DNA of 64,000 nt from Escherichia coli (lineage in GTDB: Bacteria > Pseudomonadota > Gammaproteobacteria > Enterobacterales > Enterobacteriaceae), in the NCBI RefSeq assembly GCF_003991155.1, contig NZ_CP031293.1; one strand, 5' to 3'. This document shows, piece after piece, positions 6,001-24,000 of the stretch. The stretch's first letter is position 1, and each line of letters begins with the position of its first letter. Position numbers: made by a program.

Positions 6001-9000
6001 ACGGACGTTCTGTAGCGCGCGTAAAATACCTGCTGCGGCGCATTGATTTTGCTGAAGCAGAAAATCTTGCGCAGCGTAGTCTGGAAGCGCAACTGGCGAC
6101 CGAAGTTCGCCATCAGGTTGCAGCCTTTATGGAGCGTCGCGGCATGGGCGGGCTGATTCGCGGAGGGTTATAGCGCGGATCATATACATATCTTTTAACG
6201 GTATCCGGCAACCAGCCTGGTCCCCTTGTGCTATTATTCGCACCTTTGGAGCGCCTGAAACCTGCGGCGCGCATTTCAATCGCTGTTCTCTTTCAGCGAA
6301 ATAACAAGAACTTGTGGTGACAGATGACCAGTAGCTATCTGCATTTTCCGGAGTTTGATCCGGTCATTTTCTCAATAGGACCCGTGGCGCTTCACTGGTA
6401 CGGCCTGATGTATCTGGTGGGTTTCATTTTTGCAATGTGGCTGGCAACACGTCGGGCGAATCGTCCGGGCAGCGGCTGGACCAAAAATGAAGTTGAAAAC
6501 TTACTCTATGCGGGCTTCCTCGGCGTCTTCCTCGGTGGACGTATTGGTTATGTTCTGTTCTACAATTTTCCGCAGTTTATGGCCGATCCGCTGTATCTGT
6601 TCCGTGTCTGGGACGGCGGCATGTCTTTCCACGGCGGCCTGATTGGCGTTATCGTGGTGATGATTATCTTCGCCCGCCGTACTAAACGTTCCTTCTTCCA
6701 GGTTTCTGATTTTATCGCCCCACTCATTCCGTTTGGTCTTGGTGCCGGGCGTCTGGGCAACTTTATTAACGGTGAATTGTGGGGCCGCGTTGACCCAAAC
6801 TTCCCGTTTGCCATGCTGTTCCCTGGCTCCCGTACAGAAGATATTTTGCTGCTGCAAACCAACCCGCAGTGGCAATCCATTTTCGACACTTACGGTGTGC
6901 TGCCGCGCCACCCATCACAGCTTTACGAGCTGCTGCTGGAAGGTGTGGTGCTGTTTATTATCCTCAACCTGTATATTCGTAAACCGCGCCCAATGGGAGC
7001 TGTCTCAGGTTTGTTCCTGATTGGTTACGGCGCGTTTCGCATCATTGTTGAGTTTTTCCGCCAGCCCGACGCGCAGTTTACTGGTGCCTGGGTGCAGTAC
7101 ATTAGCATGGGGCAAATTCTTTCCATCCCGATGATTGTCGCGGGTGTGATCATGATGGTCTGGGCATATCGTCGCAGCCCACAGCAACACGTTTCCTGAG
7201 GAACCATGAAACAGTATTTAGAACTGATGCAAAAAGTGCTCGACGAAGGCACACAGAAAAACGACCGTACCGGAACCGGAACGCTTTCCATTTTTGGTCA
7301 TCAGATGCGTTTTAACCTGCAGGATGGATTCCCGCTGGTGACAACTAAACGTTGCCACCTGCGTTCCATCATCCATGAACTGCTGTGGTTTCTGCAGGGC
7401 GACACTAACATTGCTTATCTACACGAAAACAATGTCACCATCTGGGACGAATGGGCCGATGAAAACGGCGACCTCGGGCCAGTGTATGGTAAACAGTGGC
7501 GCGCCTGGCCAACGCCAGATGGTCGTCATATTGACCAGATCACTACGGTACTGAACCAGCTGAAAAACGACCCGGATTCGCGCCGCATTATTGTTTCAGC
7601 GTGGAACGTAGGCGAACTGGATAAAATGGCGCTGGCACCGTGCCATGCATTCTTCCAGTTCTATGTGGCAGACGGCAAACTCTCTTGCCAGCTTTATCAG
7701 CGCTCCTGTGACGTCTTCCTCGGCCTGCCGTTCAACATTGCCAGCTACGCGTTACTGGTGCATATGATGGCGCAGCAGTGCGATCTGGAAGTGGGTGATT
7801 TTGTCTGGACCGGTGGCGACACGCACCTGTACAGCAACCATATGGATCAAACTCATCTGCAATTAAGCCGCGAACCGCGTCCGCTGCCGAAGTTGATTAT
7901 CAAACGTAAACCCGAATCCATCTTCGACTACCGTTTCGAAGACTTTGAGATTGAAGGCTACGATCCACATCCGGGCATTAAAGCGCCGGTGGCTATCTAA
8001 TTACGAAACATCCTGCCAGAGCCGACGCCAGTGTGCGTCGGTTTTTTTTACCCTCCGTTAAATTCTTCGAGACGCCTTCCCGAAATTTTGCAACGTCCTG
8101 CAACGGCGTAAATAGTCCGGAAGATGCGCCGAAGAAATAGAAACTGGCCCTCGTCTTTTTTTCTCCTCGCTCCATACTGCCGGCATGAAAACACAACGTG
8201 GTTATACGCTGATTGAAACGCTGGTCGCGATGCTGATTCTGGTCATGCTAAGCGCAAGTGGGCTCTATGGCTGGCAATATTGGCAGCAGTCGCAACGGCT
8301 TTGGCAAACCGCCAGCCAGGCGCGGGACTATTTGCTCTATTTACGTGAAGATGCCAACTGGCATAACCGCGACCACAGTATCAGTGTTATCAGGGAGGGG
8401 ACGTTATGGTGCCTTGTGAGTTCCGCTGCTGGGGCCAATACCTGTCATGGCAGTTCACCATTGGTCTTTGTGCCACGCTGGCCCGAAGTCGAAATGAGCG
8501 ATCTGACACCTTCGCTTGCTTTCTTTGGCCTGCGCAATACCGCATGGGCCGGGCATATTCGCTTCAAAAACTCAACGGGCGAGTGGTGGCTGGTGGTTTC
8601 GCCGTGGGGAAGACTCCGGCTTTGTCAGCAAGGAGAAACAGAAGGATGCCTGTAAAAGAGCAAGGTTTTTCTCTGCTGGAAGTGTTGATTGCTATGGCGA
8701 TCAGTAGCGTATTGTTGCTGGGGGCTGCACGCTTTCTGCCTGCGTTACAGCGTGACAGTTTAACGAGCACCCGTAAGCTGGCGCTGGAAGATGAAATCTG
8801 GCTGCGGGTATTTACCGTTGCGAAGCATCTCCAGAGGGCGGGTTATTGTCATGGCAGCTGTACCGGCGAAGGGCTGGAAATTGTCGGACAGGGTGACTGT
8901 GTCATTGTGCAGTGGGATGCGAACAGTAACGGTATCTGGGATCGCGAACCGGTAAAAGAGTCCGACCAGATTGGATTTCGTCTGAAGGAGCATGTGCTGG

Positions 9001-21000: not shown

Positions 21001-24000
21001 TGGTCAGTTAGCTGCGGCGATCAACCGTGGTGATAAAACGGCAGTGAAAACCGTTTTTCAGCAGGATTTTACTGATATCGAAAAACGGCTTTTACAGAGC
21101 GGCGAAGATTATATTGCGATGCTTGAGGAAGCTCTTTCGGGTTACGGACGTTATCTGGATCTGCTGCAAGCGCGTGCCGAGCCGGATTTAATCATTCAGG
21201 CGTTCAATGAGTACCAGCTTTTGTGCGCCCTGCGGGAAGGGCCGTTTGGCGTGGCTGGACTGAATGAGCGAATTGAGCAGTTTATGCAACAGAAGCGCAA
21301 AATTCATCGTAATCCGCACTCTCGTTGGTACGAAGGCCGACCGGTGATGATTGCCCGTAATGACAGCGCGCTTGGGTTGTTTAATGGCGATATCGGTATT
21401 GCGCTGGATCGCGGGCAGGGGACGCGCGTCTGGTTTGCGATGCCGGACGGCAATATTAAGTCTGTGCAACCGAGTCGCTTGCCAGAGCACGAAACGACGT
21501 GGGCGATGACGGTACATAAATCGCAGGGATCGGAGTTCGACCATGCGGCGTTGATTTTACCGAGCCAACGCACGCCAGTAGTAACACGAGAGCTGGTTTA
21601 CACTGCGGTGACCCGCGCGCGTCGCCGTCTGTCGCTGTATGCCGATGAGCGCATTTTAAGTGCGGCAATTGCCACGCGCACCGAGCGGCGCAGCGGTCTG
21701 GCGGCGTTGTTTAGTTCACGGGGATAAACGTAATTGCCGGATGCGACGCACGAGTGTTACGCATGTCGCATCCGGCGATTTTCATCGCTTACCCTAAATC
21801 CGCCATCAAAACTTTGGATTTACGCTGGTAGTTGTACAACTGCTTTTTGCTCTCGGGCAGTAAATCAATATCCACTGGGGTAAATCCACGTTCCTGGAAC
21901 CAGTGAATACTGCGCGTGGTCAGCACAAACAATTTGCTTAAGCCGCTCTGCTTCGCCTGAGCGGCAATGCGTTCCAGCAGAACCTCGCCCCGTGATGAGC
22001 TGCGGTAATCCGGGTGAACTGCCACACAGGCCATTTCCCCAATCTTCTCTTCCGGGAACGGATAGAGCGCGGCGCAGGCAATAGTCGTGTTATCGCGCTG
22101 AATAATGGTGAATTTGTCGATTTCCATCTCCAGCTGCTCGCGAGAACGGCGTACCAGAATACCTTGCTGCTCCAGTGGGCGAATCAACTCCAGAATGCCG
22201 CCAATATCGTTGATTGTTGCGCGACGAATTTGCTCGGCGCTTTCCATCACAATCTGCGTACCGATACCGTCACGTGAGAACAACTCTTGCAACAGCGCGC
22301 CATCTTCCTGATAACTGATTAAATGACAGCGACGCACGCCGCTGCGGCAGGCTTTCACTGCGCCACGCAAAAAGCGCACCGTACCGGAGTTGTAATCGCC
22401 TTTCTCTTCCTGGGCTTCTACCCGCGCTTGCGCTTCGTTAGGGAAAAGTTCGGAGACAATATCACCGTCGTCATTAGTGACGCCCTGGGAAGAGCAAAAA
22501 CCAATCATCTTTTCAGCTTTCAGTTTGATGGCCAGTTGAGTGGCAATCTCTTCCGAGGTCAGATTAAAGCTCTCGCCAGTGACTGAAACAGCGACTGGCC
22601 CCATTAGCACTATTGCACCGCTGTCCAGTTGACGATGGATCGCGTCTTCATCAATCCGCCGGATACGCCCGCTATGGCAGTAATCCACGCCGTCATCGAC
22701 GCCCAGTGGCTGGGCAATAATAAAATTGCCACTGACGACGTTGATATGCGCGCCCTGCAGCGGCGTGTTATTGAGACTCATCGACAGGCGAGCAGTAATA
22801 TCCAGTTGCAATGTTCCCGCAGCCTGCTTCACCAGTTCCAGTGTTTTGGCGTCGGTCACACGTATATTCTTGTGATACAGCGGTTCGTGGTGATGCGCAG
22901 CCAGATTTGCGTCGATCTGCGGACGTGCGCCATAGACTACCACCAGACGGATGCCGAGGCTGTGCAACAACCCGATATCATTAACGATACTGGAGAAATT
23001 CTCATGCTCAATGGCTTCACCGCCGAGCATGATGACAAACGTTTTTCCCCGGTGGGTATTGATATAGGGAACCGAATGGCGGAATCCCTCGACCAACTCG
23101 GTTTTACGTTCCTTTACCACGGCACACCTCTTTGCATGATTATTCGAAATTATTGTATTTTTATTCTGTTTTTTCGCAGGGTGCAAGTGTAAATTTTATG
23201 CGGGAGCGACTTTTTTATCAGTAATACCGTGAATATAAAAAGAATGTTTACCGTTTTATAGATGACAGATTATGCGTCTTTCGCTAAAGTTTCCGGTCAA
23301 ATTGGTCGTTTACTTGTTACACAGCTTAGATTTCTTTTGCTCGGGAGAGGCATGTCAGGATCCAACACTGCAATCAGCCGTCGTCGTTTACTGCAAGGCG
23401 CGGGTGCCATGTGGCTATTGAGCGTAAGTCAGGTCAGCCTGGCTGCGGTCAGCCAGGTCGTGGCGGTGCGCGTCTGGCCTGCGTCCAGCTACACCCGCGT
23501 GACGGTAGAATCAAATCGTCAGCTGAAATATAAGCAGTTCGCGTTGAGTAATCCTGAACGCGTGGTGGTGGATATCGAAGATGTAAACCTGAACTCGGTG
23601 CTCAAGGGGATGGCGGCGCAAATCCGCGCTGACGACCCGTTCATCAAGTCGGCGCGCGTCGGGCAATTTGACCCGCAAACCGTACGTATGGTTTTTGAAT
23701 TAAAGCAAAACGTAAAACCGCAGCTGTTTGCCCTTGCGCCGGTCGCCGGGTTTAAAGAGCGTCTGGTGATGGACCTCTATCCGGCCAATGCACAGGATAT
23801 GCAGGACCCGCTGCTGGCGCTGCTGGAGGATTACAACAAAGGCGACCTCGAAAAGCAGGTGCCGCCAGCACAAAGTGGTCCACAACCGGGTAAAGCTGGG
23901 CGGGATCGTCCGATTGTCATTATGCTTGACCCTGGCCACGGTGGCGAAGACTCCGGTGCGGTGGGGAAATACAAAACGCGCGAAAAAGACGTGGTATTGC

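Follow-up and report, generated by a model that had tools for sequence, protein, structure and literature searches.

Gene content of the thyA-argA region

We analyzed a 64,000-nucleotide stretch of Escherichia coli DNA (contig NZ_CP031293.1 of assembly GCF_003991155.1; hereafter the window), in which four prepilin-type genes, ppdA, ppdB, ygdB, and ppdC, are followed by recC, the protease III gene ptrA, recB, and recD. The segment carrying these eight genes (8185-21727) matched several complete E. coli chromosomes at 100% identity. Of 5426 complete E. coli genomes, 5425 contained it at a minimum of 95% identity, in nearly every case as a single chromosomal copy. RefSeq annotation of an identical genome gave the order thyA, ppdA, ppdB, ygdB, ppdC, recC, ptrA, recB, and recD, with argA on the opposite strand. 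All eight genes from ppdA to recD were located on the + strand, and none contained an internal stop. The coordinates (Table 1) were taken from a listing of open reading frames, the RefSeq annotation of identical genomes, and a separate junction analysis, which were all in agreement. An earlier note on this DNA, which had regarded the eight genes as translationally coupled, was correct in its gene identities and overlap sizes.

Table 1. Genes and sequence features of the thyA-argA region (window numbering)
Feature	Coordinates	Strand	Description
thyA intrinsic terminator	8022-8049	+	stem CCGACGC/GCGTCGG followed by T8; RNA fold -16.6 kcal/mol
Direct repeat TGCAAC-N4-TGCAAC	8089-8104	+	phylogenetic footprint across genera; candidate regulatory site
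-10-like hexamer CATACT	8173-8178	+	six nt before the ppdA ATG; candidate -10 of a ppdA promoter
ppdA	8185-8655	+	minor pilin, 156 aa; Pfam N_methyl 3.3e-7, NCBIfam PRK10506 1e-74
ppdB	8646-9209	+	minor pilin, 187 aa; Pfam N_methyl
ygdB	9206-9613	+	DUF2509, 135 aa; GTG start; pilin-like N-terminus without Glu5
ppdC	9598-9921	+	minor pilin, 107 aa; signal ..NQQG/FSLPE; Pfam N_methyl
GGGATGTGTCAGCATCA block inside ppdC	9834-9850	+	17 nt; with the TACGCT that follows, some 75-100 nt before the recC start codon
-10-like TACGCT	9855-9860	+	follows the GGGATGTGTCAGCATCA block; TATAAT at this position in one Enterobacter
recC	9934-13302	+	RecBCD gamma subunit, 1122 aa; Shine-Dalgarno AGGAG; Pfam Exonuc_V_gamma 2e-117, RecC_C
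ptrA-recB-recD promoter	13307-13345	+	UP-like TGTATAAAAA; -35 TTGCGC (13317-13322); 17-nt spacer; -10 TATGAT (13340-13345)
Stem-loop GCTGAC-TCG-TGCAGC	13383-13397	+	conserved; 5' untranslated region (5'UTR) of ptrA
Counterpart of Hfq-binding region	13428-13463	+	ptrA 5'UTR; 36 nt, 3 substitutions relative to K-12; matched to the sequence in PMC12342828
ptrA	13478-16366	+	pitrilysin / protease III, M16 family, 962 aa; N-terminal secretion signal
recB	16359-19901	+	1180 aa; ATG 8 nt inside the end of ptrA
recD	19901-21727	+	608 aa; strong Shine-Dalgarno GGAGGAGG
REP-like (repetitive extragenic palindromic) element	21736-21776	.	GCCGGATGCGAC...GTCGCATCCGGC; folds -29.8 and -30.5 kcal/mol

Pfam and NCBIfam supported every gene assignment from ppdA to recD. 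The domain sets expected of the RecBCD subunits were present well above the Pfam cut-offs, comprising RecC, the UvrD-type helicase and PD-(D/E)XK nuclease of RecB, and the SF1 helicase of RecD. PtrA carried the pitrilysin set of Peptidase_M16 with inactive M16_C and M16_M domains (Pfam 1e-38 to 3e-56). A scan of positions 6000-24000 against Rfam gave zero matches.

The junction geometry is unchanged in E. coli K-12 MG1655, which harbors the same set of genes (b2826-b2819). On comparing the proteins with those of K-12, amino-acid substitutions were found in PpdB (8 of 187 residues), YgdB (7 of 135), and RecC (5 of 1122), with none in ThyA, PpdA, or PpdC. The differences within the K-12 pilin set ppdAB-ygdB-ppdC (b2826-b2823), which belongs to the PpdD/Hof pilus, the haemorrhagic coli pilus of enterohaemorrhagic E. 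coli, are allelic and confined to PpdB and YgdB; gene order, overlaps, and signal peptides are the same. The segment is the canonical 63-min region of E. coli, thyA / ppdA-ppdB-ygdB-ppdC-recC / ptrA-recB-recD / argA.

Junction geometry and Shine-Dalgarno strength

Same-strand stop/start overlaps, the geometry of coupled cistrons, were observed at five of the seven junctions between ppdA and recD (Table 2), compared with 3 of 26 other same-strand neighbors within the window's first 50 kb (Fisher p=0.004). The prepilin genes had been described as running straight into recC; the spacing is indeed short, but ppdC and recC are separated by a gap and do not overlap. The long spacer between recC and ptrA had gone unmentioned. 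Overlaps of 1 nt or 8 nt were also found elsewhere in the window at EIIC/MalY, csdE/csdA, and ygdD/rlmM, three unrelated pairs, indicating that gene overlap is commonplace and normal for E. coli operons. We also considered whether the overlaps were artefacts of wrongly annotated starts. This was rejected, since the stops are unambiguous and neighboring tblastn matches themselves abut or overlap.

Table 2. Gene junctions in the window and among the species compared, with anti-Shine-Dalgarno pairing of the downstream gene
Junction	Window	Species compared	Modal spacing (nt)	Pairing of downstream gene (kcal/mol)
thyA/ppdA	184-nt spacer	at least 136 nt in all species	no modal value	+1.9 (absent)
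ppdA/ppdB	10-nt overlap	overlap in 57/65	-10	-8.5
ppdB/ygdB	4-nt overlap, GTGA, GTG start	overlap in 51/55	-4	-4.1 (weak)
ygdB/ppdC	16-nt overlap	overlap in 46/51	-16	-8.3
ppdC/recC	12-nt gap, same frame	usually a short gap	+12	-6.6
recC/ptrA	175-nt gap	>30 nt in 60/72	no modal value	-6.3
ptrA/recB	8-nt overlap, ATGAGTGA	overlap in 64/75	-4	-2.5 (background -2.5±2.3)
recB/recD	1-nt overlap, TAATG	overlap in 63/68	-4	-12.1

The strength of Shine-Dalgarno pairing differed among the cistrons. Judging from these values, recB and ygdB are most likely the cistrons that need ribosomes supplied by the upstream gene. By the same measure, recC, which has a good Shine-Dalgarno sequence of its own, is predicted to be independent of ppdC for ribosome delivery.

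Conservation across Enterobacterales

A diverse RecC alignment was used to scan one genome per species, and the 80 closest species were returned with 10-kb flanks, in which neighboring genes were located by tblastn with the E. coli proteins. The 80 loci represent Enterobacterales from Escherichia to Providencia and Arsenophonus, plus one Orbales. The order lgt-thyA-ppdA-ppdB-ygdB-ppdC-recC-ptrA-recB-recD-argA(-) was kept in nearly all of them, so that synteny, proposed earlier as a check, holds across genera. The ptrA gene was missing between recC and recB in Rosenbergiella and Tatumella (Erwiniaceae) and also in an Arsenophonus endosymbiont. In Schmidhempelia, recC alone was detected by tblastn, and two further contigs were too short for judging.

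Tight junctions were kept in about 85-93% of species, which suggests that the overlaps are not due to chance. The conserved trait is the tightness of the junctions within two modules, ppdA-ppdC and ptrA-recD, and not the exact overlap length. Exactly three class III signal motifs, the N-terminal signals of prepilins, were found within 3.2 kb upstream of recC in 62 of the 80 loci. The pilin proteins diverged much faster across genera (23-96% identity) than RecC (42-97%) or ThyA, as expected for exposed pilus-tip proteins.

Reduced-genome relatives and symbionts kept lgt-recC(-recB-recD) and had lost thyA, ppd, and ptrA. Five distant RecC representatives lay in reduced-genome or unrelated contexts, and demonstrate only that recC can be retained in the absence of ppd and ptrA. 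Since ppd and ptrA were lost while recC-recB-recD was kept in the reduced genomes, the linkage is unnecessary for RecBCD expression, and both insertions adjoining recC are dispensable for RecBCD.

The ptrA-recB-recD promoter and the end of the block

The recC-ptrA spacer contains a sigma-70-type promoter (Table 1) that is conserved in about 18 genera, with a predicted transcription start at ~13352. In the literature, RecBCD is produced from two operons, recC and ptrA-recB-recD, and the distance from the ptrA-recB promoter down to a 36-nt Hfq site is 76 nt (PMC12342828). The predicted start agrees with this published distance. The same study placed the recB ribosome-binding site inside ptrA, suggesting translational coupling, and considered that ptrA probably interrupted an ancestral recC-recB-recD order (PMC12342828). 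The organization observed here is identical to that of these published operons, down to the position of the recB start within ptrA and of the Hfq site in the 5'UTR. Because the 175-nt spacer holds a conserved promoter, the eight genes are not one coupled unit, and the idea of a single coupled chain, for which independent promoters between the genes had been named as counterevidence, does not stand.

The ptrA 5'UTR also contains a stem-loop whose stem is kept by paired changes in other genera (GCTGGC..GTCCAGC and GCCGGT..TCCGGC). A conserved TCACGGACTGATG box was observed in the same region (13355-13397); it matched no Rfam family. Downstream of recD, which converges with argA, a palindrome occupies the 61 nt that separate the two genes. 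We take it to be a REP element from its resemblance to the consensus, and it is probably a two-way transcript end or stabilizer.

A candidate internal promoter upstream of recC

The literature describes recC as constitutive and as having its own operon (PMC12342828). In an 18-species alignment, the GGGATGTGTCAGCATCA block inside ppdC was invariant, third codon positions included, except for two columns that were 70-90% conserved. Together with the -10-like sequence that follows it, this stretch (9834-9860) is a possible internal recC promoter or another element acting at the DNA or RNA level, and may correspond to the recC promoter of the literature. No intrinsic terminator was evident after ppdC or recC, and none between ppdA and recD was convincing, by consensus scan and RNA folding. 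The lack of a terminator after ppdC makes read-through into recC possible, and a transcript-stability study treated ppdAB-ygdB-ppdC-recC as one polycistronic mRNA (PMC3936743).

The thyA-ppdA spacer

Within the otherwise diverged 184-nt spacer between thyA and ppdA, three blocks were conserved: the thyA terminator, a direct repeat, and a -10-like hexamer. In about 20 genera, the terminator stem was maintained through compensatory changes and was followed by a T-run, suggesting that the ppd genes are isolated from thyA transcription. The sequence TTTTGCAAC (8086-8094), which comprises the first repeat copy and a T-run, resembles the CRP-S half-site TTTTGCGAT and has the diagnostic C6. A CRP-S site is a 22-bp CRP site with C6 and/or G17 (TGCGA-N6-TCGCA; asymmetric in E. 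coli), and a search for palindromic CRP-S or CRP-N sites upstream of ppdA, recC, ptrA, and recB gave nothing convincing. Two more conserved TCG blocks were observed upstream of ppdA, near 8129-8131 and 8151-8153.

The hexamer and its distance from the start codon, CA(T/C/G)ACT-N6-ATG, were kept in Enterobacteriaceae, and TATCCT-N6-ATG was found in Pectobacterium and Budvicia. In Morganellaceae, ppdA had ordinary Shine-Dalgarno sequences instead. The hexamer-ATG spacing, shared by several families of the order, together with the absence of a Shine-Dalgarno sequence, suggests a leaderless or near-leaderless ppdA mRNA. We therefore raise, tentatively, the possibility that ppdA is translated from a leaderless mRNA, a non-canonical route for the first cistron of the competence minor pilins. 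If so, the downstream cistrons, and recC via read-through, would follow leaderless ppdA by coupling. Leaderless translation is favored in stress or stationary phase. No paper linking ppdA with leaderless translation was found in the searchable library.

Minor pilins and their pilus

A class III signal has a short basic leader with Gly as its last residue, position +1 is hydrophobic, position +5 is Glu, and the hydrophobic helix spans about 20 residues. This signal was present in PpdA, PpdB, and PpdC, and these proteins scored above the Pfam gathering threshold for N_methyl. Among the species in which each protein was recovered, Glu5 was found in 67/67 PpdA (with Gly), 64/67 PpdB, and 58/58 PpdC sequences. 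YgdB retained Gly and the hydrophobic segment in 55/55 species, Glu5 in 0/55, and had no Pfam N_methyl match; taken by itself, this falls short of the class III motif. The prepilin peptidase cleavage site, suggested as a check for each Ppd protein, is predicted from the Gly/Phe...Glu5 signal in three of the four, YgdB being without Glu5. The Ppd gene names reflect a historical dependence on prepilin peptidase.

In this respect the set resembles the minor pseudopilins GspH-I-J-K of type II secretion and the core minor pilins FimU-PilV-PilW-PilX of type IVa pili, which likewise consist of four pilin-like proteins with one Glu5-less member, here YgdB; we take this to be the GspK pattern. Weak NCBIfam matches of PpdA to GspH and of PpdB to GspJ and PilV were far below the family cut-offs. 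Comparison of the four Ppd/YgdB sequences with solved structures gave nothing significant, the best being PpdB versus Thermus TTHA1219 (E=0.07). Unlike those two sets, the E. coli ppd genes are not located beside their own assembly machinery.

The cluster had earlier been described as lacking an assigned pilus; this is outdated, since the literature identifies PpdAB-YgdB-PpdC as minor pilins of the PpdD/Hof type IVa pilus. According to the passage of PMC5131608 that cites Cisneros 2012, they are E. coli type IV minor pilins able to prime PulG fibre assembly in a pulHIJK mutant. Furthermore, ppdAB-ygdB-ppdC are listed with ppdD, hofBC, hofMNOPQ, and gspO as genes "known to be required" for PpdD pili, and were cloned together with them for building the E. 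coli type IVa pilus (bioRxiv 10.1101/856302). The E. coli ppd operon is reported to be regulated by Sxy, with ppdA as the most strongly induced gene (PMC12616744), and the ppd genes are silent under ordinary culture (PMC1635313).

PpdD pilus assembly was reportedly reconstituted by Luna Rico et al. in 2019. The neighborhood of the pilin genes and recC is not new, having been described since 2006. Cameron and Redfield reported four similar-sized prepilin-peptidase-dependent genes adjoining recC in Enterobacteriaceae and Pasteurellaceae, and treated the ppd genes as orthologous to pulG-HI0941 of Haemophilus influenzae (PMC1635313). According to a 2025 study, comNOPQ lies upstream of recC throughout Pasteurellaceae, and E. 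coli shows the same organization (PMC12616744). The CRP-S/Sxy-regulated comNOPQ genes (pulG-HI0941) of H. influenzae are likewise four small prepilin-type genes directly upstream of recC in the same orientation, and are part of the competence regulon (PMC1635313, PMC12616744). They showed no similarity to the E. coli ppd set by BLAST, and the orthology therefore rests on position. In contrast to Haemophilus, natural transformation via this system is not known for E. coli.

Other features of the window

Six Chi sites (GCTGGTGG) were observed in the window, all on the + strand (8589, 16535, 20695, 57963, 59586, and 61499), three of which fall within ppdA, recB, and recD. Between amiC and the tRNA-Met array, five genes (24863-30092) have no gene names in RefSeq; their products are a PRD-domain regulator, a phosphotransferase system (PTS) EIIC component, a MalY/PatB-type enzyme, a KpsF/GutQ isomerase, and a phosphoglycerate dehydrogenase. 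This cluster is presumably absent from K-12 and may be a strain-variable islet at tRNA genes. Collinearity with the otherwise near-identical NZ_AP021933.1 ends at ~30117, which indicates an insertion or deletion in the region of the tRNA-Met array.

Discussion

The region is in all likelihood organized as nested, tightly packed transcription units and not as one coupled eight-gene operon. We propose that the thyA terminator shuts off upstream transcription and that a normally silent promoter in the 184-nt spacer, dependent on Sxy and cAMP-CRP according to the literature on induction, would drive ppdA-ppdB-ygdB-ppdC. Their four products would act as core minor pilins and would prime the PpdD/Hof pilus, a type IVa pilus of the competence type, for assembly. 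At the 10-, 4-, and 16-nt stop/start overlaps, ribosomes finishing one cistron could restart on the next, and such restarting would fix the proportions of the four subunits in one tip complex. The ppd transcript could continue into recC, 12 nt on, and recC would also be expressed with its own Shine-Dalgarno sequence and the constitutive promoter described in the literature.

The conserved sigma-70 promoter right after the recC stop would drive ptrA-recB-recD, with Hfq, as reported in the literature, repressing ptrA translation at the ptrA ribosome-binding site. With its ATG 8 nt within ptrA and a Shine-Dalgarno sequence that is practically absent, recB probably depends on the translation of ptrA for the synthesis of its product. 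Ribosomes would restart for recD at TAATG with its strong Shine-Dalgarno sequence, and the REP-type palindrome would close the block against argA. Translational coupling, read-through into recC, and the promoter elements of ppdA are what we infer from these arrangements. Coupling is reasonable within ppdA-ppdB-ygdB-ppdC and within ptrA-recB-recD, where that of ptrA and recB is already in print (PMC12342828), but not across all eight genes as had been suggested.

Several points weigh against this organization. The operon boundaries, the read-through, and the coupling are putative. A consensus promoter scan returned 5 sites compared with 13.9 in shuffled sequences, and none lay at the proposed promoters; the consensus promoter and terminator scan also missed the thyA terminator and the ptrA promoter and is uninformative. 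A palindromic CRP-S site (TGCGA-N6-TCGCA, up to two core mismatches) was not found in 8001-8184, where only the half-site-like TTTTGCAAC occurs, with no inverted partner. The starts in other species were chosen by alignment to E. coli, a heuristic biased to E. coli geometry. Moreover, overlap length drifts among species, being -8, -4, or -1 at ptrA/recB and -4 or -1 at recB/recD.

Another explanation is that the adjacency of the pilin genes and recC is functional, with Sxy-driven read-through adjusting RecC or RecBCD levels for incoming DNA. The conservation of ppd-recC neighbors across Enterobacterales and the reports for Pasteurellaceae (PMC1635313, PMC12616744) are consistent with this idea, as are the 12-nt spacer with no terminator and the link to transformation already proposed (PMC12616744). 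However, recC is reported to be constitutive and in its own operon (PMC12342828), and reduced-genome relatives that lost ppd kept lgt-recC(-recB-recD), indicating that RecC expression does not need ppd. As recB and recD are expressed from a separate promoter, RecBCD stoichiometry would not follow read-through into recC. The neighborhood alone may also be historical, and we regard a functional adjacency as rather unlikely.

The overlaps might instead be neutral by-products of compaction, arising by drift of starts and stops, with no regulatory role and with the genes independently translated. The overlaps of 1, 4, or 8 nt at EIIC/MalY, csdE/csdA, and ygdD/rlmM, the variation in overlap length among species, and the strong Shine-Dalgarno sequences of ppdB, ppdC, and recD all fit such an origin. 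On the other hand, the pairing of recB and ygdB equals or hardly exceeds background and both genes begin within the preceding cistron, and the tight junctions were kept in 85-93% of species despite the divergence of the pilin proteins to 23-60% identity. A purely neutral origin thus appears a little less likely still than a functional adjacency.

Finally, a single operon of all eight genes, with coupling that starts at the pilin genes and continues past recC and ptrA as far as recB and recD, is very improbable: the common strand, the lack of a convincing intrinsic terminator from ppdA to recD, the overlaps at 5/7 junctions, and the treatment of ppdAB-ygdB-ppdC-recC as one mRNA (PMC3936743) speak for it, but the spacer between recC and ptrA, longer than 30 nt in 60/72 species, holds a promoter found in about 18 genera at the published start of a separate ptrA-recB-recD operon (PMC12342828), recC is not overlapped by ppdC and carries a Shine-Dalgarno sequence of its own, and coupling is unable to bridge 175 untranslated nucleotides.

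The locus, the operons, the recB-ptrA overlap, the pilin-recC synteny, and the Ppd pilus are all already in the literature. To the organization into nested, tightly packed transcription units, the present analysis adds an order-wide quantitative picture of the junctions, together with the corrections concerning one coupled chain and an unassigned pilus. It also adds further leads: the ppdA mRNA may be leaderless, a promoter of recC may lie within ppdC, and the ptrA 5'UTR has a conserved hairpin. The leads at the promoter level could help account for the laboratory silence of these competence genes.

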